Position numbers and translations under genes: made by a program. Source: Tannerellaceae bacterium (GTDB lineage: Bacteria > Bacteroidota > Bacteroidia > Bacteroidales > Tannerellaceae). Taken from it: 64,000 bases of DNA. The stretch spans positions 227 through 64,226 of the forward strand of contig JAIRRS010000002.1 of the NCBI GenBank assembly GCA_031255855.1, given 5' to 3'. The notes under the pieces are model-generated. The model ran no database searches. It was not told where the DNA came from and saw nothing but the letters and a program-made list of their open reading frames with translations. Shown here one piece after another: positions 13,684 through 37,171 of this stretch (its first letter is position 1; each line of letters begins with the position of its first letter).

Positions 13684-16275
13684 TTACTGGTTTTTAAAGA
13701 AGACATGATTGTCTACCGCATCGATGGTAATCGGTTTACTTTTGTCTATCTTCCCCCTGAGTATCTCTTTGGAAAGTTCGTTTAAAACATATTTTTGTAT
13801 CACACGTTTTACCGGACGGGCTCCGAACTGCGGGTCGTATCCTTCTTCAGAGATGAATTGGAGGGCATCATTTGTGAAGTCAAGCGTAATGCCGTTTTGT
13901 TCCAGCATTTTTTTGATCCCATCTAATTGCAATACAACTATTTTTCTGATTTCCTGCTCATTCAATGGAGTGAACATTATTATTTCATCTATACGATTCA
14001 GGAACTCCGGACGAATGGTTTTCTTCAGCAAATCCATCACTTCGTTTTTAGTCTGCGCCATTACCTTTTCGTGATTTTGGGGAGTAATCCTTTCAAAACT
14101 TTCCCGTATTAAAGACGAGCCCATATTACTAGTCATGATGATAATTGTATTCTTGAAGTTTACAACGCGCCCTTTGTTATCTGTCAGGCGACCATCGTCT
14201 AAGACCTGCAACAGAATGTTGAACACGTCGGGATGTGCCTTTTCTATTTCGTCGAACAAGACAACCGAATAAGGCTTCCGGCGAATCGCTTCTGTTAATT
14301 GCCCTCCTTCGTCATATCCTACATATCCCGGAGGCGCACCAATTAGGCGAGTTGCGCTGAATTTTTCCTGATATTCACTCATATCAATACGTGTCATCAT
14401 ATTTTCGTCGTCAAACAAATATTCAGCCAATGCTTTGGCAAGTTCTGTTTTACCAACTCCCGTAGTTCCCAGGAATATAAACGATCCTACCGGGCGTTTG
14501 GGGTCTTGCATACCGGCGCGGCTACGCCGAACAGCATCAGCTACAGCCGCAATGGCTTCCTCCTGCCCTATTACCCGTTTATGTAACTCATCTTCCAATT
14601 GCAAAAGTTTTTCTTTTTCACTCTGCATCATTTTATTGACAGGAATGCCCGTCCAACGAGAAACGATATCGGCAATATCTTCGCCATCCACCTCTTCCTT
14701 AATCATAGCCGAAGCTCCCTGCATCTGGTGCAATTGGGATTGTATGGATTCATTTTCCTCTTCCTTAGCCTTGATTTTACCATATCGTATTTCGGCCACT
14801 TTACCATAATCACCTTCGCGTTCGGCTTTATCGGCTTCAAATTTTAGGTTTTCGATATCTATCTTGTTTTGCTGGATTTTATTAACAAGTTCACGTTCGC
14901 TTTCCCATTGAGCCTTTTGTTTCTTTTCTTCTTCTTTCATGTCGGCAATATCTTTGTCCAGATATTCCAGTTTAGCGTCATCCCCTTCCCGTTTGATCGC
15001 TTCGCGTTCTATCTCCAATTGTTTGATACGGCGGCTTATTTCATCTAATGACTCAGGTACGGAATCTACCTGGATGCGTAAACGGGCAGCCGCTTCGTCC
15101 ATGAGGTCGATGGCTTTATCCGGCAAAAAACGGTCGGTAATATATCGGGAAGATAATTTTACAGCCGAGATGATAGCGTCGTCCTTAATACGGACTTTAT
15201 GATGATTTTCGTACTTTTCCTTCAATCCGCGAAGGATAGAAATAGAATCCAATTCATCCGGTTCATCCACCACTACCACTTGGAAACGACGTTCCAGGGC
15301 TTTATCTTTTTCGAAATATTTTTGATATTCATCTAATGTAGTAGCTCCTATCGAACGTAATTCACCACGGGCTAAGGCGGGTTTGAGGATATTGGCGGCA
15401 TCCATCGCGCCTTCGCTTTTTCCGGCTCCCACCAACGTGTGGATTTCGTCAATAAACAGGATGATTTCGCCATCCGATTTAATAACTTCGTTTACTACGG
15501 CTTTCAAACGCTCTTCAAACTCGCCTTTATATTTGGCTCCGGCAATCAAAGCCCCCATATCCAAAGAAAAGATTTGTTTCGATTTGAGATTTTCCGGCAC
15601 ATCACCCCTTACGATGCGGTGAGCCAATCCTTCGGCAATGGCTGTTTTACCCACCCCCGGTTCACCAATAAGAATCGGATTGTTCTTCGTACGACGGCTC
15701 AATATCTGAAGCACACGGCGAATCTCATCGTCACGTCCGATAACCGGGTCGAGTTTTCCGCTTCGCGCACGATCATTTAAATTAACCGCATATTTACCCA
15801 ATGCATCATATGTTTCTTCTGCCGACTGGCTGGTCACCTTGTTCCCTTTCCTGAGCTCTTCAATCGCTATACGCAACTCTTTTTCGTTCACGCCGGCATC
15901 TTTCAGCATTTGTGAAGCCGTGCTTTTTTCCGTTAATATGGCAAGGATTATATGCTCAAGAGATACATACTGGTCGTCCATCTTCCCGCAATAATCAATG
16001 GCCTTCTGCAAGACCGCATTTGTTTCTTTGGAAAGGTAAGGTTCACCTCCTGACACCTTGGGATAAGAGTCTATCTGACTATCCAAAGCCTTCTGTAGAT
16101 TTTGGATACTCACACCCAATTTCTGAAAAAGAAAGTTGGCAACACTCTCTCCTGTCACAATGACACCCTTCAACAAGTGAACAACTTCCATGACCTGTTG
16201 GCTCTTTTGTGAAACCAACTGCACAGCCTGTTGAACGGCCTCTTGTGATTTGATTGTAAAATTATTCAGATTCAT
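13684..16275 (-). CDS. clpB: ClpB disaggregase (two-AAA Hsp104/ClpB chaperone)
   Basis: It has a Clp_N start ([15 protein letters not shown]), NBD1 [10 protein letters not shown], a long coiled-coil middle domain, NBD2 [12 protein letters not shown] and [10 protein letters not shown] chose the ATG at 16275; the ORF-track extension to 16338 adds 21 non-conserved residues. Confidence 0.95.
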
Positions 16276-16400: not shown

Positions 16401-19400
16401 TTACCGATATTTCAGAATCTCTTCTATTTCATCTCTGTCCAATTTGTTTTTTTCTTTCAAGCGGTTTACTAAACGAGTGATTGCCGGTTGAGCCTTTTTT
16501 ATGATTTGGATGGTTTGTTCCAGTTCGTCTTGGAGGATTATTGAGATCCGGCCGGCTATTTTTTCGGCTAACGGGCCTTGGGTGGCTTCTTTTTTGGTCA
16601 GTATTATCAAGCCGGATTCTTCGTCCATTCCATAAGAGCAAATCATCATGCGAACCAAATGGTTGGCCTTTTGTAAATCATCGGAACAGCCTGTTGATAA
16701 GCCCTCTTTGCTACCATAGTATACCATCTCGGCAGCCCTTCCGGCTAAAAATATCCGAACACGTTTTAATAATTCATCTTTTGTTTTAAGCGTAAATATA
16801 GTTTCCTCCCTGTTTTCTTCCGTGTATCCGCCATGATTGTTCCTGGCTACTACCGTAAGGTATGAAGGGGAGCTACCGGCCAGATAGGCCATATACGCAT
16901 GTCCGGCTTCGTGCCATGCTACACGTTCGGTATGTTCCATTTCCACATCTTTCTTTGCCCCGTGTGATATAAGTTCAAAGGCTTCTTCGAGTTGATCATC
17001 GTCAAGCGGTTTTTCATTGTTTGAGGCAATTATCCAACCTTTCTTCATCACCATATCCAGATCTGCAATCGTAAATCCAAATGAACGTTCCGACAAACGT
17101 TCAAGCATATGGTCTGTAACTTGGTCATTCACCTGAAGTTTCGATTTTAAGTAATCAAACCGGTTTCTCTTATTCGGAAGACCTACAAGAATTTTCCTGT
17201 CGAAACGCCTGATTAAAGCCGGATCGAGTACATTTACGCTATCATTGCTTTCAGCCACATTGAAATTGGTAGCAGCCAACACAAATACAGGGCGTTTTAT
17301 ATCCGTTGAAAATCCATCCATTTCGGAAAGTAAGGCATTCAATGTCATCTCTTCGGCGTGGGCAGAACCATAGTTGCCTCTTGTCCTTCCTATGGCATCA
17401 ATTTCGTCGATAAATATAATAGCTGGGGCATACCGGCGTGCCCTTTTAAACAACGCCCGGATTGCTTCCGGTCCGCTTCCCTGATATTGTGTAACAAAGC
17501 TGCTAGCCGTTACATGAATAAACGCGGCATCCGATTCGCCGGCCATTGCTTTGGCAAGCAATGTTTTTCCGGTTCCGGGAGGGCCGTATAACAAAACACC
17601 CTTAGGCAGCCGGATACCGGATATCAGGCTTTTTTGCGGTTTCATTAACAGTTCGAGAAAAAATCGTAATTCTTCCTTTGCTTCCTCAGCGCCAAAAACA
17701 TCATTAAACCGTACTTTGGGCTTTATTACCTGGTCTAACACTTCACGGGTATCCCCGGCTGCCAACGCGCGATGTAAAGACAATTCACGTATGCGTATTG
17801 TAATTTCTTTTTTATCATCCGACAATTTAGGAGCTGTCTCAAATGAAAGCACTTTATGTTGTGCAGCCATTTTAGTAGCCATGTCCTGCAAATAAACCCG
17901 TGAACAAATGTGTTGTATTTGCTCGTTAAAGCTACAAAAACTGTCTTCAGGCCAAATCAATTTATCCCGTACGCCTGCACGAATAAAAGAGGCCAATAAT
18001 TCCTTCTCAATTATCAATTGGTCTTTACCTAACAGGTATACGGGCATTTCCGGCAGGTTATCATGTAATTTCTTCAAGAACCTCCGGCAGGTTTTCAATG
18101 CATTTGCCGTAATAATCACCGGGCCTGACAAACCAATCGTCCCCTCATCATATTCTTTTTCTACCAAAAGTTCAAGCAGGACAAAGCTGATGTTCCTATT
18201 TTCAATAATTTTCAATGCCTCATTGTCATCTTGCTCATGATGGATGATAACGCCGTCTGATTTTGCCTTTAATACTCCGGCAGACAAGATGTTCCCCAAA
18301 AATAATATTTCAGGCGTCTCCGGATTTTCGAACAATGTCTTCACTTCAGGATGTATCGGATCTTTTGCCACTTCAAAACGGATTTTCTCCAGTTTTTTCA
18401 GATTTGTCACTGCACGATCTTCCCAATGCCTGTATAATTCAAAGATCTCTTTTTTCAGGAATTGTTCGGTTTGTGCCCGCAATGCGCGGGCATCTGTCTG
18501 TCCTCCTTCGGCAAAAATCAGGATAGGAGCAAGCAAACCATCCTCTGTAATTTCAATCTTATATTGCTTCTTGAATAAATCGGCGAAACGCTTAAATTCT
18601 CCTACACTTACCTGCTCTAAATCGTAAACTTGCAGATGGTTGAACATCATAAGATAACCGGTAGCCAAACGCGAACAAATCGCAGCCGGAAAAAAAGGTT
18701 TGTTTGTTTGAGGATTGATATCTGTTTCCAACGCATTCAGGATCGTTTGCCGGGGTAGCCCGGCCGTATTCAGCCTATATTCTCCTTCATAGAGTTGCTT
18801 TCCCGCATTTGTTGTGAATATAATAATCGTATCTTTAAAGGAAACTTTATTATCCAGAAAATCATCCTGCAATGATCCGGCATCCAGGATTTGCAGGAAT
18901 AGTTGTATCGTGTTTAAATGCGCTTTTTCAACTTCGTCAAAAAACAAAATACAATGTGGATTCTGTTTTACAAATCCGGTGAGTTGCCCTACTTGCCCAG
19001 TGTGTTTAAAACCTATCAACCCTAGATGTGCCTGATGGTCGGAAAAGCTACTCATATCAAAACGTTTATAGGGTATGTTCAACGTTCGCGAACCTTGTTC
19101 GGCCAAGAATGTTTTTCCCACGCCCGGAGGGCCTGCAAACACAAATATTCCCCGGGGACGGTTTTGCTCCCGTCCGGTTGCCGCCAATACTTCCGAATTA
19201 AAGATTCCCTCAGCAAAAGCATGTACAACATGATTCTGCCCATACACTTGTCTGAGTAAGGATTCCCTTAAACTCCGGATACGTTTTGTAAGCAACACCA
19301 AAAAAAAACGTCCCAAATCAAATGTGTTTTTCAAAATAGGCGTAGGTTCATACAATAATATCGACAAAACGTTGATTGCCGTTGTCATGTTATCCTCCGA

Positions 19401-19730
19401 GTATTGCCTTGCCTTATGCAACAACCGCTCAACTGCCCGGAAACCCTCTATGGAATCTTTCTCGATAGACAAAGCATTCCTCAATTTCAATCGTCCTTTT
19501 CCCGGATTAATCTCCATGTCCCGTAATAGATCCGATACTTGTTTGATTTCTTCATTCGTTTGCTTTGCATACCGTGAATTAGGCATCGCACTCTCTGCCG
19601 TGACTTCCGCCAGTTTGAGTAATCCTAAAAAGATATGTTCGGGAGAAATGTCTTCAACGCCTAATGCTTCCATTTCACATTCGGCTCGCTTAAGGACAAA
19701 TTCCATTGCCCGGCTCAATTCTTGTCCCAT
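16401..19730 (-). CDS. Membrane-less multi-domain AAA protease: Clp_N – ClpB-D2-like AAA – receiver-like domain – FtsH-type AAA – M41 zinc peptidase
   Basis: Residues 1-140 are Clp_N-like repeats (ISPEHIFLGLL; AINVLSILL). Residues ~155-375 are AAA_2 (VYGQNHVV, GPPGVGKTF, ILFFDEVEKAH, IIIFTTN). Residues ~473-595 are REC-like. Residues ~675-865 are the FtsH AAA (LLYGPPGTGKTLLAKA, IIFIDEIDAIG, LDPALIRRFDRK). Residues ~930-1100 are M41, with HEAGH at 16899-16913 and SDDLQKA. No hydrophobic TM segment is seen anywhere. Confidence 0.85.
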   Translation of the reverse strand: MGQELSRAMEFVLKRAECEMEALGVEDISPEHIFLGLLKLAEVTAESAMPNSRYAKQTNEEIKQVSDLLRDMEINPGKGRLKLRNALSIEKDSIEGFRAVERLLHKARQYSEDNMTTAINVLSILLYEPTPILKNTFDLGRFFLVLLTKRIRSLRESLLRQVYGQNHVVHAFAEGIFNSEVLAATGREQNRPRGIFVFAGPPGVGKTFLAEQGSRTLNIPYKRFDMSSFSDHQAHLGLIGFKHTGQVGQLTGFVKQNPHCILFFDEVEKAHLNTIQLFLQILDAGSLQDDFLDNKVSFKDTIIIFTTNAGKQLYEGEYRLNTAGLPRQTILNALETDINPQTNKPFFPAAICSRLATGYLMMFNHLQVYDLEQVSVGEFKRFADLFKKQYKIEITEDGLLAPILIFAEGGQTDARALRAQTEQFLKKEIFELYRHWEDRAVTNLKKLEKIRFEVAKDPIHPEVKTLFENPETPEILFLGNILSAGVLKAKSDGVIIHHEQDDNEALKIIENRNISFVLLELLVEKEYDEGTIGLSGPVIITANALKTCRRFLKKLHDNLPEMPVYLLGKDQLIIEKELLASFIRAGVRDKLIWPEDSFCSFNEQIQHICSRVYLQDMATKMAAQHKVLSFETAPKLSDDKKEITIRIRELSLHRALAAGDTREVLDQVIKPKVRFNDVFGAEEAKEELRFFLELLMKPQKSLISGIRLPKGVLLYGPPGTGKTLLAKAMAGESDAAFIHVTASSFVTQYQGSGPEAIRALFKRARRYAPAIIFIDEIDAIGRTRGNYGSAHAEEMTLNALLSEMDGFSTDIKRPVFVLAATNFNVAESNDSVNVLDPALIRRFDRKILVGLPNKRNRFDYLKSKLQVNDQVTDHMLERLSERSFGFTIADLDMVMKKGWIIASNNEKPLDDDQLEEAFELISHGAKKDVEMEHTERVAWHEAGHAYMAYLAGSSPSYLTVVARNNHGGYTEENREETIFTLKTKDELLKRVRIFLAGRAAEMVYYGSKEGLSTGCSDDLQKANHLVRMMICSYGMDEESGLIILTKKEATQGPLAEKIAGRISIILQDELEQTIQIIKKAQPAITRLVNRLKEKNKLDRDEIEEILKYR

Positions 19731-19736
19731 ACCGTA

Positions 19737-22700
19737 TCATTTTTTTATTAGTTTTGCTTTTACTCCTTCCGGGTGTAGCCAGCCATAGCCATTCTGCTGA
19801 AGTTTTTTTATCAGGTCGTCGAAATCATCGTCTGTCCAACTTGGGTATGTTTTCAAAAACACGTCCAAATAAGGGCGGGCTCCTTCATCCCAATCCTTCC
19901 AGCCGGGAAATTCATACTGGTAATCTATCTGCAAAAGGTGGGGCGTGTCTTTCCCTCCATCTCCATAAGTTGAAAATGTAACCGCATAATTTCCATAAGG
20001 ATATATGGCTATACGATCCCCTTCCGTATGCAACATGGATATGTTCTTTCCGGTATATGTATCCCACACATAGACTTTGCCGCGGGTAGTGGAAAGCGCA
20101 AAACGTTCATTCGGGAGAAATTGCACATCCGTCGGTATGATATTGATGATTTCGTCAAATTCCCTAACTATCTGCAAGGTGCTCAAATCCATCAGTATAA
20201 TCTTATTCAAAAAACCCATTAACAATTTCGTACGATCATGATTGATACCCATGCAACAAACATCTTTATGGAGCGTATGTTTTACTTTCCCACGGTCTAC
20301 ATCCCATAACAGAACTTCCGCATAAAGTCTGTAGAAATGGGTAGACATCGTGATTACGGATGTTCTGTCCGAACCAAAATAAGCGCTCCTTATTTCATGG
20401 TTGTGGGTAAGTGTACGGATGCATTTTTGTTTTTTTATATCCCATATCTTAACCGTTTTGTCTTCACTGCCCGACAAGAGATATTTATCATCCAAACTAA
20501 CGTCTAATGCAGTAATGGGAGACTTATGACATTTATCGAACGAAAACAAATAGTTGCCGGTGAAAGCATCGAATACCTTTATCGGTTCGGTATATAAATT
20601 TACGGCAAAAAGGAGTTTTTTGTCGGGACTCACTGTAAACAGGTTTACAGCTCCTTCTATCCGGCAAATACTCTTTTCGTTTACAATATCATACAAGTGC
20701 CCATCGGCAATGGTCTTGCAATCGGCCGTCACCAAATGATTAACTGCAACCTCTCTGGCTGCCCTTTTTTCAGTAAAAGTCCGGAGGCCCTTGATCCGGC
20801 AATACTTCCCGAGTTCGGCATTCAACTCTACATACGAAGATAAATTCACGACATAAGGGATTGTATCTATCTCTTCTATCAGGTCTAATGCTTTCTGTAT
20901 TTCTCTGTTTTTAAGATTTTTATTGATTTTTTCTTTTATCATATGAAAATGAGACTCATGCTCCAAACTCTCTTTCGCGCTAATAATGTGGGTTAACGAC
21001 CAATTAATAACGGAATAGTTTTTTCGGGGAAGGAATGGAAAACACATCAATGACTTGTTTCCGGTTTTCTCCATAAGGTATATAGGGTATGTCGTAACAA
21101 AGAAATATTCATTGGAAGAATGGAAAGCAAATGCTTTAAAGAGGCCGCTATAATAAGATATTTTGCTTTGTCCGGTTTGCATGTCCATTAATTTCGAAAT
21201 TAATGATAGTATATAAACATGGCGGTTATCCGGGCAAAAATGCATGTTCGTTCCAAAACCTTTATCATAAGAAGATACCAGCCTGCCAGAAGATACATCC
21301 AACAACCAGAATTCTCCCGTGTTGAAATTCACTCCTGCCATATCGTCGTTAAAAGTGAAATGGAGCGCTTCAACAGAAGATTCACAGGCCCTGTCCCATA
21401 TCAGATTACCATTAGCCGTATCAAATAATTTTATCCTTTTATTCTTATTTCCTGTAACGAAATAGTTTTTATTATTACTGAAACAGGCGGCCGACACTTC
21501 TTCTTCATCAATCGTTATGGTCTGAATACGTTTTCCTTCAACTGTGTCCCATTTGATTAATTTCCCCGACCGGGCATCATCTTCCCAAACCAAAGCCCAC
21601 ACTTGTTCGTTATCCGGACTGAAACAGGCGGTTTTCGGTTTGTCGTTTGCCAATAAGTCGTCTGTAAATGTCCGGACGCATCGTCCCTCTTCCGCAAGCC
21701 ACAGGCAAATGGCGTTGCCGCTGATGTTGTTCATGAAGTCTACCTTCTCCTTAATCATATACGTTTCAATAAACTTATCCATCAAAACATCTTTGTCGAT
21801 ACCCGGTATATTTTTGTACATTGAAACATACAGGTCGTTAACAAAATACTTGGCTATATTTTTCATATTTAATACAGGAGGAATGGTTTTCAATACGCTT
21901 TTTTTATTGCCTATTGCGTTATGGGTTAATACATATTTACCGTCATGACTGATGCAAAAGGCCGACGACTGGATTTTCGGCCATGCATGTTTGTATATTA
22001 ATTGTGCTTTATCGGGCACGTCTCTGAATGAATAATTGATTTTCCATTTTTCAACTCCTATTCTCGAACAGGCTATGATTGCAGATTCTTCTTCCATCCA
22101 TTGCAACAACTCGGCATAATGGAGCTCTTCAGACAATGTTACGCCGGGTTTGGGAACTTTAACGTCGCATCCATGTCGTTCGAGAAATTCCATCAACACG
22201 ATGTAATTTTTATACGTCAAATGGTTCTTGAAAACATTTGTCATTTTACTATCCATTATCATGCCCAGTTCACTGTAATTGTAATTTTCCATACAAAAAT
22301 TAGCAAACAACCAGGCTGCATGATGGTCATATTGATGTTCCCGGTACATGTTTTTCACCATATTCAGCGCTTTCTCGTCATCTATCCTGGCATTCCGCCA
22401 AAGATAAACGGCATAATTGAATACGGCATCGGGGTGGTTCGGGTCAATAACGATTGCCCTTTCCCAGCATTTTTCAGCCTCTTCAGGCATTTTCATATCC
22501 AGATACGAAAGCGCTTTATTGTTTAAACTACCCGCGCTCTCGCCGGCAGCTTTTGGTTGCAAACGAAGGTATAGGCGTCCTGTTATCCCGTGATAAATAT
22601 CCTGCAATTCTTTTTCTATGGCTTCGAATCCGGGACGTAGCTGTTCGTCTTCCAAAAAACAGTGGTCGAAAAGGTCTTGTATCTTGTGGCGTATGTCTAT

Positions 22701-23468
22701 CCGCGGGGTTTTTGCATATTCTTTCCATTTATGTCCTAAGTTTTTTCCGTCTTTCCATTCCGGGGGGCGTTTCCCGATAAACATTTCAAGCAATGTGGCC
22801 GCCCAGTTCCATACGTCCGATTTGTCTGTAAGTTTCTTTTGAGGGTTTGCTTGTTCGGAAGAACGATAAGCTAATGTATAGGTCTCTTTACGGGCTTTTG
22901 AAATCCCGAAATCGGCTATCTTTACTGTGCCTTCTTTCGAAAGTAATATATTGGAAGGTTTAATGTCGCGATGTAATATTGTTTGGTGGGCATACTGCAA
23001 ACCACGAGCCATTTGAATAGCTATGTCCAAAAATCGTTCTATTATTTCCTCTTCGTCGCCTTCATAGAGCGGCCCTTTGCCTTCGCCTATAAAGTCCTTT
23101 AGGTTACCCCCGTCCATCCATTCGGAAAATATAGAAAGGATTCCGTCCGTATCACGTACATAATAGCAGGATACGATATGCGGATGAAGGCCGAGGTCTA
23201 TCCAGGTTTTACACTCATCGAGGAATTGCTCCTTGTATTCTTCTCCTTCAAGAATGGATTGTTTCATAGCCAGGTCTACATTCCATCTCTTGTGGTGTAC
23301 GCGGAATACTTGCCCCATATGCCCTTTAAAAGGGCCTTCTTTTATTTCGTACATGTTGAGGAATGTATCCCCTATCTTGATACCGGAAGAAGAGGCCTTG
23401 TGCAGCGCATTGTCTGTCGACGTTATTTCCCCCAGATTGAATTTCGTTTTATCTTCATTGTTTTCCAT
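19737..23468 (-). CDS. Ser/Thr protein kinase – TPR – two WD40 beta-propellers (1243 aa)
   Basis: The kinase core spans residues ~38-295 with VDLAMK (Lys68), HRDIKPSNILL, DFG and DVWNWAATLLEM. A TPR-like segment (EEAEKCWERAIVIDPNHPDAVFNYAVY) follows. WD40 signatures occur in two blocks, for example LLSGSEDKTVKIWD. There is no P-loop and no TM segment. Confidence 0.85.
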   Translation of the reverse strand: MENNEDKTKFNLGEITSTDNALHKASSSGIKIGDTFLNMYEIKEGPFKGHMGQVFRVHHKRWNVDLAMKQSILEGEEYKEQFLDECKTWIDLGLHPHIVSCYYVRDTDGILSIFSEWMDGGNLKDFIGEGKGPLYEGDEEEIIERFLDIAIQMARGLQYAHQTILHRDIKPSNILLSKEGTVKIADFGISKARKETYTLAYRSSEQANPQKKLTDKSDVWNWAATLLEMFIGKRPPEWKDGKNLGHKWKEYAKTPRIDIRHKIQDLFDHCFLEDEQLRPGFEAIEKELQDIYHGITGRLYLRLQPKAAGESAGSLNNKALSYLDMKMPEEAEKCWERAIVIDPNHPDAVFNYAVYLWRNARIDDEKALNMVKNMYREHQYDHHAAWLFANFCMENYNYSELGMIMDSKMTNVFKNHLTYKNYIVLMEFLERHGCDVKVPKPGVTLSEELHYAELLQWMEEESAIIACSRIGVEKWKINYSFRDVPDKAQLIYKHAWPKIQSSAFCISHDGKYVLTHNAIGNKKSVLKTIPPVLNMKNIAKYFVNDLYVSMYKNIPGIDKDVLMDKFIETYMIKEKVDFMNNISGNAICLWLAEEGRCVRTFTDDLLANDKPKTACFSPDNEQVWALVWEDDARSGKLIKWDTVEGKRIQTITIDEEEVSAACFSNNKNYFVTGNKNKRIKLFDTANGNLIWDRACESSVEALHFTFNDDMAGVNFNTGEFWLLDVSSGRLVSSYDKGFGTNMHFCPDNRHVYILSLISKLMDMQTGQSKISYYSGLFKAFAFHSSNEYFFVTTYPIYLMEKTGNKSLMCFPFLPRKNYSVINWSLTHIISAKESLEHESHFHMIKEKINKNLKNREIQKALDLIEEIDTIPYVVNLSSYVELNAELGKYCRIKGLRTFTEKRAAREVAVNHLVTADCKTIADGHLYDIVNEKSICRIEGAVNLFTVSPDKKLLFAVNLYTEPIKVFDAFTGNYLFSFDKCHKSPITALDVSLDDKYLLSGSEDKTVKIWDIKKQKCIRTLTHNHEIRSAYFGSDRTSVITMSTHFYRLYAEVLLWDVDRGKVKHTLHKDVCCMGINHDRTKLLMGFLNKIILMDLSTLQIVREFDEIINIIPTDVQFLPNERFALSTTRGKVYVWDTYTGKNISMLHTEGDRIAIYPYGNYAVTFSTYGDGGKDTPHLLQIDYQYEFPGWKDWDEGARPYLDVFLKTYPSWTDDDFDDLIKKLQQNGYGWLHPEGVKAKLIKK

Positions 23469-23487: not shown

Positions 23488-24252
23488 TCATGGTACTTTA
23501 TCCGCCCAAATGAGAGCCATTTCCTTGGCTTCTCTTAAATAAGATCTGTGATCGAATGTATCTTTTATTTTTTTGATGATTATCTTCCGGTTACTCTCTA
23601 TGGCGCTAACATCTATTCCTAATATATTGCTCATTTCTTTATTGGAATAACCTTCGCCCAATAATTTAACGACGTCATTCTCACGGCAAGTAAACCAGAA
23701 TCCGGGTTTGTCGCGCTGTAGGATTACCTTACTCTTGCCACAATGAGGTATTCCGTCGGACATCGCAATGTCTATGCCTCTGCTAATTTCCATTATCGGC
23801 GAATTCTTGGAAACATGGCCTATTCCCAATTCTGCCAAAAGCCTTATCGGATACCAATGGGTATATCCGGAGTAAACTAATATCTTCATATCGGGATACA
23901 AGCCTTTCATCTCTTTACAAAAGTCTATCCCATTGCCTTCCGGTATTTTGTACAATCTTCTTACCTCCTCTACCGGCATAGGGATGAATTTTTCTTTTTT
24001 CTCCTTCCGTATAATATCCATCTCTATCCCGTTCGTGTCGCTGATATCAAGCAACAAAACATCGGGCAGTTTATATCCTTTCAATAAATCACTTGCCAAC
24101 TTCCTTCTACATTCTTTTAAAGAATCGGAACGTCCAACGACCTCCGCAAAACGTGAATCCTCGATATGTTTTTCTACCTCATCAGCAATCATTATGTGGC
24201 GATCGGCAAGGTAGACTCGTATTTTGTCTTCATTGGCTGCCTCTTTTTTCAT
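23488..24252 (-). CDS. NarL/LuxR-family response regulator with an atypical receiver (about 30-aa loop duplication)
   Basis: The receiver has IRVYLAD…, DVLLLDISD (putative acceptor Asp69), KILVYSGY and HVSKNS. The C-terminal LuxR HTH reads NDVVKLLGEGYSNKEMSNILGIDVSAIESNRKIIIKKI. The segment TNGIEMDI… recurs as MP…GNGIDFCKEM…. Confidence 0.75.
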   Translation of the reverse strand: MKKEAANEDKIRVYLADRHIMIADEVEKHIEDSRFAEVVGRSDSLKECRRKLASDLLKGYKLPDVLLLDISDTNGIEMDIIRKEKKEKFIPMPVEEVRRLYKIPEGNGIDFCKEMKGLYPDMKILVYSGYTHWYPIRLLAELGIGHVSKNSPIMEISRGIDIAMSDGIPHCGKSKVILQRDKPGFWFTCRENDVVKLLGEGYSNKEMSNILGIDVSAIESNRKIIIKKIKDTFDHRSYLREAKEMALIWADKVP

Positions 24253-24881
24253 ACGTCCGTTATTTTTTGCGGGTCTTCTATTTCTATACTTATTTCCGTT
24301 TCCAATCCCGGCGTCGAATGGATTATCATCCGTCCGTCCAAAGCCTCCACACAGGTACTGATATTGGCCAGTCCTTTTCCTATGCCTACATGGTCGGGAT
24401 CGAAGCCTATGCCATCGTCGCGTACCGTAACCGACAGGAAATCGTCATCTACCGTCAATTGTACCCATATTTTCTCCGGGTTCCCATGTTGCACGGCATT
24501 GTCTATTAATTCACGCGTGCACCGATAAATAATCACTACCAAACGGTTATTCAATGACGGTTGTATTCCATATGAACTGAAATACGTCTTCGGAATCATC
24601 TCGCAATAATCTTTTACGGCGTATTTCAACCCCATGGATAATAAAGAAGCAACCGGTTCCAAATCGGCATCCGATTTCGTAAGCCACGAATCGTGTACCT
24701 CCATCCCTTTTGTAAATGCCTTAACATCCTCGCCATCTACAATTGATAACGTCTTCATTTTACCAATCACCCTTTTCTGAACCACGTTTGCCTCCTTCAT
24801 TGGCCAGGCTTTTGCAGATTGGCTTACTTGTTCCTGTTTTCCAACAGATTTGTCTCTTTGTTCCATACTCCAGGTTCTCAT
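24249..24881 (-). CDS. Sensor-less NarL-class (HisKA_3-type) histidine kinase core, cytoplasmic
   Basis: It has a possible H-box EVHDSW, the N-box YRCTRELIDNAVQHG, G1 RDDGIGFD and G2 GIGKGLANISTCVEALDGRMIIHSTPG. Only about 60 residues precede the H-box, with no TM or PAS domain. There is a 4-nt overlap with the response-regulator gene. Confidence 0.65.
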   Translation of the reverse strand: MRTWSMEQRDKSVGKQEQVSQSAKAWPMKEANVVQKRVIGKMKTLSIVDGEDVKAFTKGMEVHDSWLTKSDADLEPVASLLSMGLKYAVKDYCEMIPKTYFSSYGIQPSLNNRLVVIIYRCTRELIDNAVQHGNPEKIWVQLTVDDDFLSVTVRDDGIGFDPDHVGIGKGLANISTCVEALDGRMIIHSTPGLETEISIEIEDPQKITDV

Positions 24882-24893
24882 ATCTTATCTTAC

Positions 24894-24901
24894 AAATATA
24901 A
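24894..24901 (-). promoter_or_regulatory. Candidate Bacteroidetes -7 box (TAtaTTTG) upstream of the HK gene
   Basis: Plus-strand CAAATATA equals minus-strand TATATTTG, matching the TAnnTTTG consensus. It lies 13 nt upstream of the start at 24881. Confidence 0.3.
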
Positions 24902-24922
24902 ATTAAATTCCTTTCTTTCAGT

Positions 24923-25462
24923 CTATAACCTATGCTTAATCTTGTCGTTTTTATTATTATCCGGTTCCGCCGCCGGTTTCCGGTATTGTATTTCAATTCG
25001 TCCGTCTTTATACCTGTTTATCATTACCTTGTCAATAGCGGCGGCCTCGGTGCGATATTCATCTTCATTGGGTGTAAATCCTTTCGGGATAAGAAAGACG
25101 TACAGTGTTTCCGCCTGGCTGTCGTTGCCTCCCGTAACAAACCTACAAACGAACTTTCCCGAATCATTCACCGGGACTGAAGGGTAAGCAGCGTATGGTT
25201 TTGGCCCCCATATCCGTCCGCCGCGTTCTACCTGGAGCGACATCGTGATCTTGTAATCGCCATATCTCCCTACGCCATCTGTTAATTCTATACGGCCGAA
25301 CACCGTACCGCCCTTACCTATAGCAGGTACAGAGTCTATTTTCAATTGTACTACCCCTTGCGCCATTACCTTGCTACACAAGCATAATACCGACAATACA
25401 AAAAAGAGAGAGATTCTTTTTCTCAGGCCAATCCTTTTTTTAACTACTTTCATGGTTTTCAT
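24923..25462 (-). CDS. Small secreted hypothetical protein
   Basis: The 179-aa protein has a basic N-terminus, a hydrophobic signal (ISLFFVLSVLCLCSKVMAQG) and a beta-rich body. I recognise no motif in it. Confidence 0.6.
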   Translation of the reverse strand: MKTMKVVKKRIGLRKRISLFFVLSVLCLCSKVMAQGVVQLKIDSVPAIGKGGTVFGRIELTDGVGRYGDYKITMSLQVERGGRIWGPKPYAAYPSVPVNDSGKFVCRFVTGGNDSQAETLYVFLIPKGFTPNEDEYRTEAAAIDKVMINRYKDGRIEIQYRKPAAEPDNNKNDKIKHRL

Positions 25463-27393: not shown

Positions 27394-30300
27394 TTAACGA
27401 TGATTCGCTTGCCTGAACTGCTGAGGAGTTACCCCGGTGTGTTTTTTAAAACAACGGGTAAAATATGCCGGATTTGAAAATCCCAAACTATATGCTACTT
27501 CCGAAATTGTCAACTGATGTTTCTGCCGAAACAGAGTCATGGCATGATTCATCTTAACAGACAAGATATAATCATTCGGAGTCATACCTGTAATATGTTT
27601 GATCCGGTTGAAAAGCTGTGTTCGTCCTATCCCTAAATACCTGCTCCAACGTGTTGTGTCAAAATCTACATTTTCAAAATTGACTTCTATTACGCGGATC
27701 GCTTGCTCCAGGAAAGCCTGGTCGTGCAAATTAGTCGTCATCTCGGCCGAAGATGTTTCTCCGGTCGATTGATTATTCGATTGGTTAAGCAATCGTTTCT
27801 GATTCCTTACCAGCCGGTTGCACCGCAAATAAAGAATATTGGCATTAAACGGTTTCACAATATACTCGTCGGCGCCTGCCTGAATCACCTCAATATATTG
27901 TTTTTCAGAAGGATTAGATGACATCAAAATTACCGGAATATGCAATGTCCTTATATTCGATTTTATCATCTTACATAATTCTATCCCGGATATTCCGGAA
28001 ACGGATGTTTCCGCGATAATCAGATCCGGAATGCTGTCCGCGGCATCTTTATAACCCTCTTCCCCATTATCTTTAATTGATATATTGTATAAAGGTGAAA
28101 AGATTGTGGTGAAAAGCGTCAGCATTTCATCATTATAATCAATTAACAACAAACGGTATTTTTTATTCTGATCGTGAGTATTGTCTTCTACTCCCAACAT
28201 ATCCTCTTCTATAAATTCTTCCGTAAAAAACGGCGCCTTTTCTGTAGATTCAGCCAATATAGATAGTTCATCGTCATTAAAATGTTTCTCACCCAGTCTT
28301 AAACGGACATAAATTGTAATGACATTATCTTCTGTTTCAACAAATAATTCTCCTCTATGCAATTCAATGATTCGTTTTGCCAATACCAGCCCGATACGGT
28401 TTCCGGAAACCGAACGGATATCTGCCGGCAAATCCGCGCTATTCAATGTTTCCAGCAAACGATTCAGCATTATTTTGTTCGGGTCATTCGTATAGCAAGC
28501 AATCGTGGTCTCAAGCCAGCCCGATTTCTTCAAAAATACAACCGAGACTTTTCCCCTCGGATCAATGAGCTGGAACGCCGCGGGTAATAAATTATAAAAC
28601 ACTTTTTGCATCTGTATCCTATCGAACCAAAGCATAATAGTCTCGGCATACTGCTTAGGGTATACGAACGATTTACCTTGAGCATAAACAGCGAATGAAA
28701 GACATACTTCCTGTATGAAATCGGGAAACGAAAAACTATTTACCCTCAAACTTAATTTATTCAATCCCGTTTGGTGCAAATCCAGAAATTCAGTAATTAC
28801 ATTCTGAAGAAAATAAGCCTGTTTACGTATCTGCATAATCTTCGATTTCCTCAGACCGGAAAATTCCTGCAATAAACTATACGAAATAGATATGATCAAT
28901 GTCAACGGCGTCCTGAATGCATTGGATATGCTGGTGAAAAAATCAATCTGATTGCGGTTTATCTCTTCCATGCGATCGATTTCCCGCCGTTCTATTTCCA
29001 ATGAGGCCTGTAATTCCGCTTTTCCTTTATAAAAAAGCCAGAAAATACGTAATAGCACAGTCACAATAATAATATATAGCAGGAAAGCCGGCCAGGAAAA
29101 CCAAAAAGGTGACTTGATCTTTACATTCAACATGATTTTCTTGTCGGGATTGGTCGTTTCTTGAATAACCAACTGATAATTACCCGGTCTCAGTGAAGAA
29201 TAAGTAATTGTTTTATGTTCCGTATAATTCCAGAAGTTGTCCAACCCTTCCAGTTTATACCGGTAGCGGGTATGATAGGCCGGTATATAATTGGATGTGG
29301 CGAATATAAAATTCAATGTGTTTTGGTCATATGGCAGCACCAATTCTTTTAAATCAACTACATTCTTCTGCCGGTAAGGCTTATTATTGACCAACAAAGA
29401 GGAAAGATAAAACGAATAAGTATTATTAAGCACATGCATTTCCCGTTCATTAAATGAGAGCATGCCATATAAGCCGCCTACATAGATATCACTTGTTTGT
29501 GATGAAACAAATAATCCACAATCTTCGCCGATTTCCAAAATCGGATACGAACCATTTAACAAGACATGCCGGGATGAATCAATGGTTTTCTGCGCCGAAA
29601 TATTCAATAAAGTTATCCCCTGGCTGGATGTTACTACTAAGTTTCCACCGGATGTTAATGCCAGGTTGTAACATATATCATTTAACAACCAGTTGTCTTT
29701 TACCGAAAAGACACGGAAAGAGTCAATTTCGGCAATATAGTTTAACAAGCCCGATTTGGAAGTGGCAAAAAACAATCCCTGTTTCGAATCGCCACAAATA
29801 GAAACGATTGCGCTTGGCAACTTTCCCCGGCCTCCCGACCCGATATTATACGAACGGATTAACTTCTCCTCCGACAAATCGACGGTAAAAAGCCCATCCT
29901 TCAATGTCGAAACCCATAATACATTACAATCATCAATATGGATCGTGCGTATAAATCCGGAACATAATTTCCTTAATCCGGCTTCCCGGAAAAGGCCGGA
30001 TATTTCCTGTGTATTCCGATTCATCTGATAAATGCCATCCTGAGTCAGCAATATCAACTTATTGCGATAAGGTATGATTTTCTCAACAATTTTTTTCAAT
30101 CGGGAATCCAACGTATCACTCCGGATAGATCCGGTTTTTCCCGTATTCACATCCAGATAATACAGGCCTTCCATATACACGCTGATATACAATTTATTAT
30201 ATTCTTCATCAAACCATAAAGCACGAATTTTATCATTGGGCAACTGACCGGACGCTGCTTTGAGATGCCGGACCGTTCCCGTTTTTTTATTGATAATATT

Positions 30301-31425
30301 AATTCCGCTACCTTCTGTCGCGATATATAAGTTTCCGGTTTTATCTTCAGCCATATTTCCTAACACGACCCCATGAATCTCGTCAGGCCGCTTCTCATCT
30401 GTTTTCCAGAAATTATAATTATCCGTTTGCGGATTAAAATAACGAACAGTCCCATAATACGAACCTATCCAGATTGTACCTTGCCGATCCGTACACAAAG
30501 CATAAATCATGGAGGTGGGCAACAGAAGGTCTGGGCTCGCCCGCAGGCTATTTGTGGAGATTAGATAAATACCGGCTATTGTCCCCATCCATATATTCCC
30601 GGTTGAAGGACTTTCAGTGAAACAAAAGACTTCCCCGTTATATATCGTTCCGTTTTCGTATTGGAGAGACTGCACTTGTTCTTCCGGAGAAACAATGAAT
30701 ACCCGTCGAGACCTGGAGCTTACCCAAATATGGCCATGTGAATCCCGGTAGAGACTATTTATACTTTCCGAATGTATGATCTGCCTGGCATGATACTTTC
30801 CATCGAGAGATTCTTCTACTTTAAACAATCCCGTAGTCGCACCTAACCATATTTCATTATTGGCAGATATGAGAATCGATATAATGGCCGTACCTTCCGG
30901 AAGCTCACATACCACATTCTTCGATCCCACCTCAACATCATATATATATAGCCGGTTTTCATACGAAAAATAAACATGATTTCTCCCTGAATATATCGCA
31001 TCTGCCTTTATTTCGGGTCGTATAAATTTATTGGTAATCAAATCCAAACAAATTAATTGCTCCGCCGCCAGTAGATATAACGTTGAATCATTGCCGCAAA
31101 TACCGTGAATATCGGCGTCTTCAATATCCTCAAAATATTCGGATAACCTGTAAATCATTACATCATCTCCATTATAACAATTCAGCACTTCATTCCCAAT
31201 CCACATGCGCCCCCAACTGTCTTGCCAGATAGATATGGCGGATGCCTGAGTCATTCCCTGCGCGGGTCCGAGTGTTCTGAAAGACCGCTCTTTCCCATGC
31301 ACTGAAAGACAAAAAAACACCAACATCAATGCAAAATAAAATAATCTTTTTACAGGCATTTTAACAAAACATTTCTCCAATTTATCAGCCAAAGGTAAAG
31401 AATAATCATACAACATCGTACGCAT
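27394..31425 (-). CDS. Hybrid two-component system regulator (beta-propeller/Y_Y_Y sensor – TM – HisKA/HATPase – REC – AraC HTH) with substituted phospho-acceptor residues
   Basis: It has the canonical HTCS layout, but the H-box reads FFTSISNAFRTPLTLI (Asn835 where His is expected, codon 28921-28923). The N-box is NLLPAAF and no DxGxG G1 box is seen. The receiver acceptor reads PDLIIAET (Glu1139, codon 28009-28011). The AraC HTH is at the C-terminus. An alternative start is the ATG at 31359. Confidence 0.9.
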   Translation of the reverse strand: MRTMLYDYSLPLADKLEKCFVKMPVKRLFYFALMLVFFCLSVHGKERSFRTLGPAQGMTQASAISIWQDSWGRMWIGNEVLNCYNGDDVMIYRLSEYFEDIEDADIHGICGNDSTLYLLAAEQLICLDLITNKFIRPEIKADAIYSGRNHVYFSYENRLYIYDVEVGSKNVVCELPEGTAIISILISANNEIWLGATTGLFKVEESLDGKYHARQIIHSESINSLYRDSHGHIWVSSRSRRVFIVSPEEQVQSLQYENGTIYNGEVFCFTESPSTGNIWMGTIAGIYLISTNSLRASPDLLLPTSMIYALCTDRQGTIWIGSYYGTVRYFNPQTDNYNFWKTDEKRPDEIHGVVLGNMAEDKTGNLYIATEGSGINIINKKTGTVRHLKAASGQLPNDKIRALWFDEEYNKLYISVYMEGLYYLDVNTGKTGSIRSDTLDSRLKKIVEKIIPYRNKLILLTQDGIYQMNRNTQEISGLFREAGLRKLCSGFIRTIHIDDCNVLWVSTLKDGLFTVDLSEEKLIRSYNIGSGGRGKLPSAIVSICGDSKQGLFFATSKSGLLNYIAEIDSFRVFSVKDNWLLNDICYNLALTSGGNLVVTSSQGITLLNISAQKTIDSSRHVLLNGSYPILEIGEDCGLFVSSQTSDIYVGGLYGMLSFNEREMHVLNNTYSFYLSSLLVNNKPYRQKNVVDLKELVLPYDQNTLNFIFATSNYIPAYHTRYRYKLEGLDNFWNYTEHKTITYSSLRPGNYQLVIQETTNPDKKIMLNVKIKSPFWFSWPAFLLYIIIVTVLLRIFWLFYKGKAELQASLEIERREIDRMEEINRNQIDFFTSISNAFRTPLTLIISISYSLLQEFSGLRKSKIMQIRKQAYFLQNVITEFLDLHQTGLNKLSLRVNSFSFPDFIQEVCLSFAVYAQGKSFVYPKQYAETIMLWFDRIQMQKVFYNLLPAAFQLIDPRGKVSVVFLKKSGWLETTIACYTNDPNKIMLNRLLETLNSADLPADIRSVSGNRIGLVLAKRIIELHRGELFVETEDNVITIYVRLRLGEKHFNDDELSILAESTEKAPFFTEEFIEEDMLGVEDNTHDQNKKYRLLLIDYNDEMLTLFTTIFSPLYNISIKDNGEEGYKDAADSIPDLIIAETSVSGISGIELCKMIKSNIRTLHIPVILMSSNPSEKQYIEVIQAGADEYIVKPFNANILYLRCNRLVRNQKRLLNQSNNQSTGETSSAEMTTNLHDQAFLEQAIRVIEVNFENVDFDTTRWSRYLGIGRTQLFNRIKHITGMTPNDYILSVKMNHAMTLFRQKHQLTISEVAYSLGFSNPAYFTRCFKKHTGVTPQQFRQANHR

Positions 31426-31599
31426 ACCTTATAAAATCGTACGGTAAACGATTCTATACCGTTAAAAATAAGATTATGGCATCTATGAATCAATCCCGTC
31501 TTTTACATTTGTTAATAAACAAAAAGAAAAAGGAAAATACATTTTCATTCAAAAATGAGATTATATATTGAAATTAATTATTAAAAAAATCATCAAATT

Positions 31600-34500: not shown

Positions 34501-35028
34501 CATGGTGGTATTACTTGGACTTCTAAATTTGATGGCAAGACTTATCATGATGGAGTTGTGCCTGAAGGAATTTTTGCAGAAGGAACAACTATTGCACAAG
34601 CTGACGGAAGTACTTATACAGTAGGAACAGGTGGTATCTCAAATGCCGGAGAATCTTATCAGGAATTAATCAATAAAGGTGTGATTGAACCTACTCATTC
34701 ATCTGCTTGGGCATATCGTAATAATGCATGGACGATGGCAGGCCGCAATTATGGAGTTGTTTCAAAAGATTGGGTGAAGGAATTAAATTATATCGCGTTG
34801 CGCGACATCTCTATTAGTTATCAAGTACCATCCAGTTTTTGCAAAAAATTAAACGCCACAAGTTTGAATTTAACATTAGCCGGACATAACTTAGGCTACT
34901 TACTGAACACCATGCCAAGTGGGGAAAATCCAGAATCGGTAAGCGGTACAGCTGCTGCTGAATTCCGTGTACGTTCGTACCAAGGAGTTACGTCCAGTTA
35001 TACATTTACACTGAATGTAGGATTCTAA
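31600..35028 (+). CDS. SusC/RagA-family TonB-dependent receptor
   Basis: The 1142-aa protein has a signal peptide, CarboxypepD_reg (VTGIVEDELGPVAGAAVVIKGTTTGSITDMDGQFSM), the SusC plug (LDEVVVTALGMKRSEKSLGYA), AALYGSRGLNGAIVITTK and a C-terminal F. Confidence 0.92.
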   Translation: MTRVYRSVSMLLLAVVFSSLGTTNAWNGPAIEKAAVSQQKKKVTGIVEDELGPVAGAAVVIKGTTTGSITDMDGQFSMDVNNGETIVVSFLGYVTQEIKYTGQEHLTIKLVEDAQALDEVVVTALGMKRSEKSLGYAMTELKGNELNTNLINPVAALQGKVAGLEISGSDGGSFGSTKVQIRGVSTLKKNNQPIYVVDGIILSNDIKEGDPDWDGNANDYGNELKNLNPDDFETISVLKGAAATALYGSRGLNGAIVITTKNGRAGQGLGIHFTQTVGMEMVTASPNLQNVYGDGTAAGYVEYGEKDASGNYYIFDNYRQFALNNSKRETFIPNQGMGFGPAFDGREIEYYDGTYRSYSPVKNNFRKAYDTGFNSNTNIAISGGNDKTTFYTSLGYRYAKGILPNNEFQRFSFLGKASHKITNRVRLDISMSFANSMPKNPLTNIGEQFVNGNWGRSYDPSYSKKKYQGSHGGQASTDYGDEYGNMPGLGTWWRIYKHSYEQKETSVRPVVKLEIDLLDWLKFNTEGSYNYYYTRYEGKELGSGYANEGGKYEMRLRAKEQTNLNTNFIANKTFGDWTVSGFLRGEYFNEFLQQQEMNTEGGLVVPGQYFIANSKQTPKYTAKIKDTKRILSVAFQAGISWKDQVFVDATGRNDWSSSLVYSDGHGTYSYFYPSVNGSWLITNTFQDQLPEWISFAKIRGSWAQVGSDTDPYTINSAYELTTSTSGSTNYYGLKTPTKVNSTNLKPERKNAWEVGLDWRFVNNRFGVDFTYYKENTKDQIMEIAVPYQSGILKQLINAGNIQNKGVELALNVVPIQTKDLEWGLNFTYTKNDNKIISLHENVADYIVLSGDVAYGNYRIGSVAKVGSSYGTLMTDSYLKIDKSSGMPVLVWTESMKRANYLRNEAEIHEIGSMIPDFLGSVSTNLKYKNWSLYVGLDMRFGGYVASYNSRYGTAYGYTKNSLNGSPGHGGITWTSKFDGKTYHDGVVPEGIFAEGTTIAQADGSTYTVGTGGISNAGESYQELINKGVIEPTHSSAWAYRNNAWTMAGRNYGVVSKDWVKELNYIALRDISISYQVPSSFCKKLNATSLNLTLAGHNLGYLLNTMPSGENPESVSGTAAAEFRVRSYQGVTSSYTFTLNVGF

Positions 35029-35067
35029 ATGTGGTTGATTATTGTGAAATATAAATTAAAACAGAAT

Positions 35068-37095: not shown

Positions 37096-37097
37096 AG

Positions 37098-37171
37098 TAG
37101 CGCGACCCAGGATTGAACTGGGGACCTCATGATTATGAATCATGCGCTCTAACCGGCTGAGCTATCGCGCC
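37098..37171 (-). tRNA. tRNA with CAT anticodon (elongator Met, or Ile2 if lysidine-modified)
   Basis: The minus strand reads GGCGCGA TA GCTC AGCCGGTTA GAGC G CATGA TTCATAA TCATG AGGTC CCCAG TTCAATC CTGGG TCGCGCT A. This folds into a complete 74-nt cloverleaf with a G1·U72 wobble and no encoded CCA. It lacks the three G-C pairs in the anticodon stem that mark initiator tRNA. Confidence 0.9.

Follow-up and report, generated by a model that had tools for sequence, protein, structure and literature searches.

The gene at positions 16401 to 19730 (minus strand) of the window, the 64,000-nucleotide stretch of the Tannerellaceae bacterium contig JAIRRS010000002.1 analysed here, encodes a soluble 1109-residue protease that is coupled genetically to giant Ser/Thr kinases. 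The chain consists, from the N to the C terminus, of a Clp_N-fold domain, a ClpA/B-D2-type AAA module with its lid (ring 1), a receiver-like (REC-like) domain, an FtsH-type AAA module (ring 2) and an M41 peptidase. The protein belongs to a large, uncurated and apparently uncharacterised family of AAA+ proteases whose defining context is this kinase coupling. Taken together, the data make it probable that this widespread family is distinct and that the protein is a soluble AAA+ zinc metalloprotease, kinase-regulated, hexameric and self-compartmentalising. A preliminary description of the same DNA had proposed a soluble FtsH-type AAA/M41 protease preceded in the chain by a Clp_N domain and an AAA module of the ClpA/B D2 type, and this architecture is borne out by Pfam, by family profiles and by structure models. 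That description was essentially right in its structural part and wrong in its evolutionary explanation, and it overlooked the REC-like domain, a deletion in the ring-1 pore loop and the coupling to the giant Ser/Thr kinases.

The gene is an uninterrupted 3.3-kb open reading frame with an ATG start. Pfam searches assigned AAA_2 (PF07724) to residues 192-341 (E=2e-30), AAA (PF00004) to residues 712-850 (E=2e-49) and Peptidase_M41 (PF01434) to residues 930-1105 (E=1e-26), and the domain order was completed with family profiles and structure prediction. The scores of the curated NCBIfam equivalog models all lie below their cut-offs: 352 bits against 600 for FtsH (TIGR01241, residues 667-1102), 144 against 993 for ClpA (TIGR02639, residues 149-398, matching the D2 part of the model at positions 446-685), 101 against 1232 for ClpB and 111 against 885 for ClpV1. 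The PRK10733 score is likewise below threshold (226 bits against 1008). All the motifs quoted earlier for the ClpA/B-D2, FtsH-AAA and M41 modules were found, namely GPPGVGKT (residues 200-207, the ring-1 Walker A), ILFFDEVE (261-268), IIIFTTN (302-308), GPPGTGKT (716-723, the ring-2 Walker A), QYQGSG (748-753), IIFIDEID (771-778), LDPALIRRFDRK (835-846), HEAGH (940-944, window 16899-16913) and SDDLQKA (1016-1022). No transmembrane segment is present in the protease: in 19-residue windows the Kyte-Doolittle mean peaks at 1.17, against a threshold of ~1.6. In the AlphaFold2 model the N terminus forms a confident soluble helical bundle with a predicted local distance difference test (pLDDT) score of 94.6, in agreement with the earlier view that the protein lacks a hydrophobic anchor.

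Conservation was analysed in 103 sequences, comprising the window protein and 102 full-length representatives, each drawn from a different 50%-identity cluster. Ring 1 and its lid occupy residues 150-435 (18426..19283, minus strand), with the Walker B residues D265 and E266, the sensor-1 residue N308, the arginine finger R354 and the sensor-2 residue R415; the Walker A Lys, the Walker B Asp-Glu, sensor-1, R354 and R415 are each kept in all 103 sequences. Ring 2 is of the FtsH/classical-clade type (residues 669-925; 16956..17726, minus strand), with Walker B at D775/E776 and a second region of homology (SRH) containing N822 and R841/R842. Its Walker A Lys is kept in 103 sequences, Walker B in 102, the sensor-1 residue N822 in 100, R841 in 100 and R842 in 101. 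The M41 zinc metalloprotease (residues 926-1109; 16404..16955, minus strand) has the HExxH motif H940-E941-x-x-H944 together with E1001 and D1018, kept in 99 of 99 aligned members. Because the catalytic residues are near-invariant across the 99-103 aligned members, both ATPase motors and the protease are under selection for activity. The earlier suggestion that a two-ring unfoldase and its protease form one covalent unit was a fair one, as both ATPase modules and the protease look competent. Over their full length, the C-terminal 449 residues match the FtsH cytosolic-domain structures 6gcn and 4ww0 (E~8e-73), and the AAA part of this half aligns equally well with VAT/p97 D2.

The decisive context of the protease is its linkage to Ser/Thr kinases, which is genetically locked. 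The stop codon of the partner kinase gene (19737..23468, minus strand) lies 6 nucleotides ahead of the protease ATG. The kinase is a 1243-residue protein with K68, HRD166 and DFG186 and with TPR and WD40 beta-propeller repeats detected by Pfam. The protease also directly follows a kinase of 1000-1700 residues, with or without TPR/WD40, in loci from Eubacteriales (L001), Deferribacteraceae (L086) and Tannerellaceae (L087) and in the metagenomic loci L003, L084 and L085, where an FHA-kinase and a PP2C phosphatase usually precede the large kinase. Hidden Markov models (HMMs) detected neither an FHA-kinase nor a PP2C across the 64-kb window, which thus shows a minimal form with one kinase. For a census, 54 further loci were retrieved with an alignment of the REC-like domain and all loci were scored with partner HMMs; a contig scan with the full-length alignment, through patterns such as PGTGKT[LM]LA, drew in canonical FtsH (80 loci) and was of little use. 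Thirty non-redundant loci had 3.4 kb or more of sequence upstream of the protease gene. A kinase occurs in 25 of them and a PP2C in 14, and in 17 the gene immediately upstream, in the same orientation, is a large kinase/WD40 gene. A Ter-type biosynthetic cluster takes the place of the kinase in two, and three have neither. Several loci carry two or three tandem kinase/WD40 paralogues.

The linkage extends to covalent fusion. Eleven of the 102 representatives are single-chain Pkinase-protease fusions of 1550-2130 residues, with the kinase N-terminal to AAA_2-REC-AAA-M41, and one of these (P0127) also has a TPR match. A fused kinase shares 33% identity with the window kinase over 352 residues (E=5e-45), an alignment that reaches into the TPR region and places both in the same subfamily. 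In the Ter-linked loci (L106:2262-8158, and also L109, L114, L115 and L125), no kinase is present, and a Ter-associated biosynthetic cluster lies immediately ahead of the protease gene. The cluster encodes PRTase_2+TRSP, StiP+PELOTA_1, TerD, ATPgrasp_Ter, a HAD hydrolase, a 146-residue protein and Zn_peptidase_2, which suggests a second kind of upstream input to the same protease.

Of the two pore loops, that of ring 1 is the more unusual in the window protein. Alignment of the ring-1 pore loop, LIGFKHTGQVGQLTG (18975..19019, minus strand), shows a 3-residue deletion that takes out the conserved aromatic residue: the window protein, like the two relatives nearest to it, reads GFKHT---GQVG, where the family pattern is GF.PSY/F..AK.G and the ClpB sequence GAPPGYVGY. 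The aromatic residue is kept in 93 of the 103 family members and is absent from the window protein, whose subclade also lacks a low-complexity linker of ~40 residues after the N-domain. The ring-2 pore-1 loop, VTQYQGSG (Y749-Q750-G751; 17472..17495, minus strand), retains its aromatic residue and has Gln as the second residue. Y749 aligns with the pore-loop aromatic of VAT (KYYG/KWVG), p97 and FtsH. At this position 83 of the 103 members have an aromatic residue (Y in 53, W in 25, F in 5); the next residue is V in 46 and Q in 19, and the following one is G in 97, giving a family-majority loop of K-Y/W-V-G. The loop had been described as departing from the aromatic-hydrophobic-Gly pattern. However, Y749 is present and the motif is an aromatic-Gln-Gly minority variant. 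Because ring 1 lacks its pore aromatic in the window's subclade, ring 2 probably does the threading there.

The N-terminal domain (residues 1-138; 19317..19730, minus strand) has a Clp_N fold of eight helices in two repeats. The Pfam Clp_N match of the single sequence is sub-threshold (15.5 bits against a cut-off of 20.7, E=0.02). A profile of 24 family N-termini matches ~30 ClpC/ClpC1 N-domain structures (best E=7e-7), and its second half matches the ClpA N-domain (E~0.009). The AlphaFold2 model of the eight-helix domain has a predicted template-modelling score of 0.90, and its top 50 Foldseek matches in the Protein Data Bank (PDB) are all Clp/Hsp100 N-domains, aligned over the whole domain with template-modelling scores of mostly 0.54-0.65. 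The two Clp_N-like repeats of the preliminary description are thus correct, since profile matches, predicted fold and Foldseek matches agree. The ClpC N-domain binds phospho-arginine through pockets with T7/E32 and E106 (PMC12583610). In the profile alignment, S6 and the near-invariant E31 (in 'PEH') of the protease fall on ClpC T7 and E32, and the second pocket, the E106 equivalent, is lost in the family, where 'TA' replaces 'TEH'. The E31/S6 alignment hints at the reading of a phospho-mark and does not settle its specificity. In at least 6 of the 30 loci, a second operon protein of 500-740 residues carries the Clp_N-like N-domain of the protease (HMM E 1e-22 to 1e-37; L001:4120-6333, L127:6892-8415, L089:6372-8096, L092:993-2582 and L097:3085-4911). 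The remainder of this protein has no Pfam match; a role as adaptor, decoy or substrate is conceivable.

Residues 436-668 (17727..18425, minus strand), between the two rings, have no Pfam match, including to Response_reg, and their family profile matches REC structures weakly. The AlphaFold2 model of this region (pLDDT 84.3) shows a REC fold followed by a C-terminal beta-hairpin and a linker. Of the 73 PDB matches that Foldseek returned at E<=1e-3, almost all are receiver domains, with template-modelling scores of 0.6-0.76 (target-normalised), and the ClpXP adaptor RssB is among the top structural matches. The model and the Foldseek matches show the (beta/alpha)5 flavodoxin-like fold of receiver domains. 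The phospho-acceptor position is E520 in the window protein, D in 82 of the 103 family members and E in 10. The canonical DD pair after beta1 is absent, being G-N in the window protein and having A, G, S or T at its first position in the family. The region is therefore no plain linker but a non-canonical receiver-like domain, in which classical His-Asp phosphotransfer is doubtful because the DD metal pair is missing.

The family extends far beyond this genome. The whole architecture recurs, at 48-65% identity, in over 120 full-length orthologues from four phyla, which measure 1100-1190 residues; the sources named for them are Tannerella, Dysgonamonadaceae, Prolixibacteraceae, Bacillota (Oscillospiraceae, Eubacteriales and Clostridiales), Spirochaetaceae and Deferribacteraceae. 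The orthologues bear no label beyond "AAA family ATPase" or "FtsH". With the family-specific residues 1-665 as the query, an exhaustive HMMER search gave 397 clusters (50% identity) at E<=1e-30, with a patchy distribution across phyla, and the identical protein is present in independent assemblies. Pfam and NCBIfam hold no curated model that covers the protease family. No published description of the architecture or of the kinase coupling was found in the literature searched, a coverage that lies apart from the 2012 Ter-system analysis; Krupa & Srinivasan (2005) mention only the synteny of YabT with canonical ftsH. The family is thus widespread, uncurated and apparently undescribed. The same domain order was looked for elsewhere, as had been proposed, and the architecture proved to be common, but no characterised subfamily was found. 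Some members deviate in length or composition: P0137 (1508 residues), P0170 (1513 residues) and P0132 (1622 residues) have N-terminal extensions of 550-700 residues without a kinase or other Pfam domain, P0133 and P0172 have a third Walker A motif, and P0021 (1721 residues) has additional helicase-like AAA_11/AAA_19 matches.

This distribution bears on the origin of the gene. The clpB gene (13684-16275) lies 125 nucleotides downstream on the same strand and the AAA_2 module is clearly of the ClpA/B D2 type, and it had been proposed that the Clp_N/AAA_2 half arose by local duplication of clpB, which would then have been fused to an ftsH-like gene in this lineage. However, BLASTP alignment of the N-terminal half with the window ClpB gave 35% identity over 193 residues between the AAA_2 module and ClpB D2 and no alignment between the N-domains, and the top NCBIfam match of this half is ClpA rather than ClpB. 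The full architecture is kept at the higher identities given above in Bacillota, Spirochaetota and Deferribacterota, and clpB adjoins the protease gene in only 1 of the 30 non-redundant loci, the window itself. Because orthologues in other phyla are closer than the adjacent ClpB and the adjacency is unique to the window, local duplication is refuted, and we give it next to no credence.

In the mechanism that would fit these observations, the protease assembles as a hexamer, by analogy with the hexamers of FtsH and Clp/Hsp100, in which a ClpA/B-D2-type ATPase ring would be stacked over the FtsH-type ATPase ring. The FtsH-type ring would thread unfolded polypeptide into the chamber of the fused M41 protease. 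Clp_N may act as a receptor for substrates or adaptors, as in ClpA/B/C/V, and the inter-ring REC-like domain may be a switch that governs regulation or assembly. The protease would form the proteolytic arm of a Ser/Thr-phosphorylation module, in which the giant kinase senses a signal or binds targets through its TPR/WD40 repeats and, in most relatives, the FHA-kinase and PP2C would set and reset the state. Judged from the genomic context, the kinase, together with PP2C and FHA-kinase where present, would set when or on what the protease acts. The direction of this control and the reading of a phospho-tag are what we infer: phosphorylation may turn the protease on, or may tag proteins for capture by Clp_N. 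The window version is a reduced form, with one kinase, no FHA-kinase or PP2C, the ring-1 aromatic lost and Glu at the REC acceptor position.

Several points weigh against this mechanism. The family members are known from their sequences alone. A 230-residue domain lies between the rings, whose stacking is deduced rather than seen, and the REC-like domain lacks the DD metal pair. The pocket Glu of ClpC binds a guanidinium group, so that conservation of E31 by itself does not predict the reading of phospho-Ser/Thr, and the pocket equivalent to E106 is lost. A narrow N-domain HMM matches just 27 of the 102 representatives, and the receptor domain therefore diverges fast. The 5 of 30 loci that lack a nearby kinase (two with a Ter-type cluster, three with neither) indicate that kinase control is not obligatory.

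A different biological role has been weighed for the same machine, in which the TPR/WD40 kinases would be diversifying sensors of invaders and the protease would destroy invader or host proteins in an abortive-infection-like or stress-shutdown response. This reading concerns the role and is compatible with a kinase-regulated protease mechanism; we regard it as possible, though we lean against it. Tandem variable giant kinase/WD40 genes occur at L003, L084, L098, L102, L101 and L105, the patchy cross-phylum spread at ~50% identity suggests horizontal transfer, and some loci are tied to a Ter-type cluster. Ter-type clusters are associated with phage and stress resistance. In its domain logic the system is also similar to the conflict systems with kinase, FHA and beta-propeller domains in Kaur et al. 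2020 (PMC7159879). Defence-model matches in PADLOC-DB v2 are partial, to IetA and TRIP13 on the AAA module and to mad6 and PD-T4-6 on the kinase, and the NCBIfam scores are below the cut-offs (MADS6 103 bits against 460, IteA 118 against 510). However, these matches reflect generic kinase/AAA similarity, and no PADLOC or NCBIfam defence model matched the family as such. The flanking genes in the window and in the relatives are housekeeping genes (SusC/D, PorZ, EF-Ts, ribosomal proteins, RuvA and MurJ), no integrases or neighbouring defence genes were seen, and the scan with the REC-domain alignment found no copy on viral contigs. Membership of any PADLOC system was rejected in the absence of a full-length match to a system-specific model. 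A separate and rather speculative reading of kinase and protease together, to which we attach a low probability, is a bacterial phospho-degron system, in which the WD40/TPR kinase would tag targets, Clp_N, perhaps with the REC-like domain, would read the mark, the protease would destroy the tagged protein and PP2C and FHA-kinase would proofread, possibly as an immune or stress effector.

That the protein is instead a general heat-shock or quality-control protease, co-regulated with clpB as a cytosolic substitute for FtsH and with the kinase only peripheral, is unlikely. It adjoins clpB in the window, and both halves of the architecture derive from quality-control machines; the Clp_N of ClpB/Hsp104 binds unfolded proteins via a hydrophobic groove (PMC12583610). 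However, the clpB adjacency is found in this genome only, the distribution is patchy rather than universal, and the tight synteny and fusion with signalling kinases and phosphatases point to regulated, not constitutive, proteolysis. The loss of the ring-1 pore aromatic in the subclade, the Glu at the REC acceptor position and the sub-threshold single-sequence Clp_N match could also be taken as signs of an assembly chimera, a two-gene read-through, a decaying gene or a pseudo-enzyme. Against this stand the uninterrupted reading frame, the identical protein in independent assemblies, the hundreds of orthologous clusters with the same domain order, and the catalytic residues of both rings and of the protease, which are intact in the window protein and conserved in the family. 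An artefact was rejected on these grounds as extremely improbable, and the kinase-regulated protease remains the preferred reading.

Bacterial ATP-dependent proteolysis is usually listed as ClpXP, ClpAP/CP, HslUV, Lon, membrane FtsH and the proteasome. A soluble protease that joins a Clp-type receptor and ring to an FtsH-type ring and protease would lengthen this list of machines, and the phospho-degron system, if true, would add a sixth type to the bacterial AAA+ proteases and parallel the phospho-arginine-ClpCP pathway on the Ser/Thr side. To our knowledge, the link between Ser/Thr phosphorylation and protein stability in bacteria is poorly documented outside the phospho-arginine pathway, and the tie to kinase, FHA and PP2C would give a direct handle on it. 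Among gut and anaerobic Bacteroidota and Bacillota, members of the family are common, and its single-chain kinase-protease fusions are natural designs for targeted protein degradation. The family concerns the fields of AAA+ proteases and of bacterial signalling. Its proteins have already been deposited in databases, where they bear generic names.

Three small genes lie upstream of the kinase gene (23488-25462, minus strand). They include a LuxR-type response-regulator-like gene (23488..24252, minus strand; 254 residues) with weak REC and GerE matches in Pfam, whose product shares 24% identity (E=1e-9) with that of the Response_reg+GerE gene heading the Tannerellaceae operon L087. A HATPase_c gene (24249..24881, minus strand; 210 residues; Pfam E=3e-13) overlaps it by 4 nucleotides, and a 179-residue protein has no Pfam match. 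Both the regulator and the HATPase_c gene are possible operon members, and the three genes may be a degenerate or split two-component pair in the same operon. Operon boundaries were set by intergenic distances alone. A sigma-70 scan of 13.4-26 kb, with a consensus that does not cover Bacteroidota promoters, gave promoter-like sites at background level, and no terminator-like site was found in the intergenic gaps of interest in this range. No mobile-element genes were seen around the protease locus in the window. Further away, 27394-36942 and 59245-61530 encode a hybrid two-component regulator (Reg_prop/Y_Y_Y/HATPase/REC/AraC), a SusC/SusD-like pair and a PorZ-like protein of the type IX secretion system, a content typical for a Bacteroidales chromosome, and a tRNA-Met lies at 37097-37171 (minus strand). 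The segment 46000-52000 has a G+C content of 0.46-0.505, compared with 0.36-0.44 elsewhere in the window, and encodes a 920-residue protein with weak Trypsin and RGI_lyase matches, a PKD-like-domain protein and a thioredoxin/AhpC-like protein.

Comparisons with known systems place the protease between established groups. As in the McsB/ClpC-ClpP phospho-arginine pathway, a kinase is coupled genetically to an AAA+ protease whose Clp_N could read the mark, with E31/S6 aligned to E32/T7. However, the kinase here is a Hanks-type Ser/Thr kinase and not an arginine kinase, the E106 pocket is not conserved, and the peptidase is M41 and not ClpP. The FtsH ternary system that Kaur, Burroughs, Iyer and Aravind described (2020, PMC7159879) also features a soluble two-AAA FtsH-type protein in a signalling/conflict-type operon, with beta-propeller and, rarely, ClpN domains in its partner proteins. 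In that system both AAA modules are FtsH-type and the N-terminal one is inactive, and MoxR and vWA proteins are its obligatory, defining partners, often with genes for ubiquitin-like (Ubl) conjugation (PMC7159879). In contrast, ring 1 here is an active ClpD2-type module with intact Walker A/B and the partners are Ser/Thr kinases, FHA and PP2C, and neither MoxR nor vWA genes were found in the window or in the annotated loci of relatives. Identity with the ternary system was rejected on these two grounds. RssB-type adaptors likewise use a REC fold in the control of regulated proteolysis, but RssB is a separate ClpXP adaptor with a canonical acceptor pocket, whereas the REC-like domain here lies within the protease chain, between the rings, and has no DD pair.

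The closest comparisons are with FtsH and with the class I Clp/Hsp100 proteins ClpA, ClpC, ClpB and ClpV. Canonical FtsH has two N-terminal transmembrane helices flanking a periplasmic domain and a single AAA ring. The protease shares with it a classical-clade AAA module (Walker A/B, SRH) fused to an M41 peptidase with HExxH and a downstream acidic zinc ligand, and a hexameric, self-compartmentalised mode of degradation like that of FtsH would be expected of it. However, it lacks the transmembrane helices and the periplasmic domain, begins with ~670 extra residues that hold Clp_N, an additional AAA ring of another type and the REC-like domain, reads RRFDR in the SRH where FtsH reads RPGRFDR, and has Y-Q-G in the pore loop of the window protein. 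Canonical FtsH membership was rejected on the score (352 bits against 600), the missing helices and the extra N-terminal residues. With the class I Clp/Hsp100 proteins the protease shares the two-repeat Clp_N fold, an AAA_2 D2-type module with a sensor-2 lid, and two ATPase modules. It differs in lacking a D1 module, AAA_lid_9 and an M-domain, whereas Pfam detects D1/AAA_lid_9 and D2 in the window ClpB, and sequence inspection found no IGF/IGL tripeptide for ClpP docking. Its D2-type ring comes first, its second ring is FtsH-type, and its peptidase is fused rather than a separate ClpP. By curated scores and defining features, the protease is a member of neither group, FtsH-like in its lower half and Clp/Hsp100-like in its upper half.

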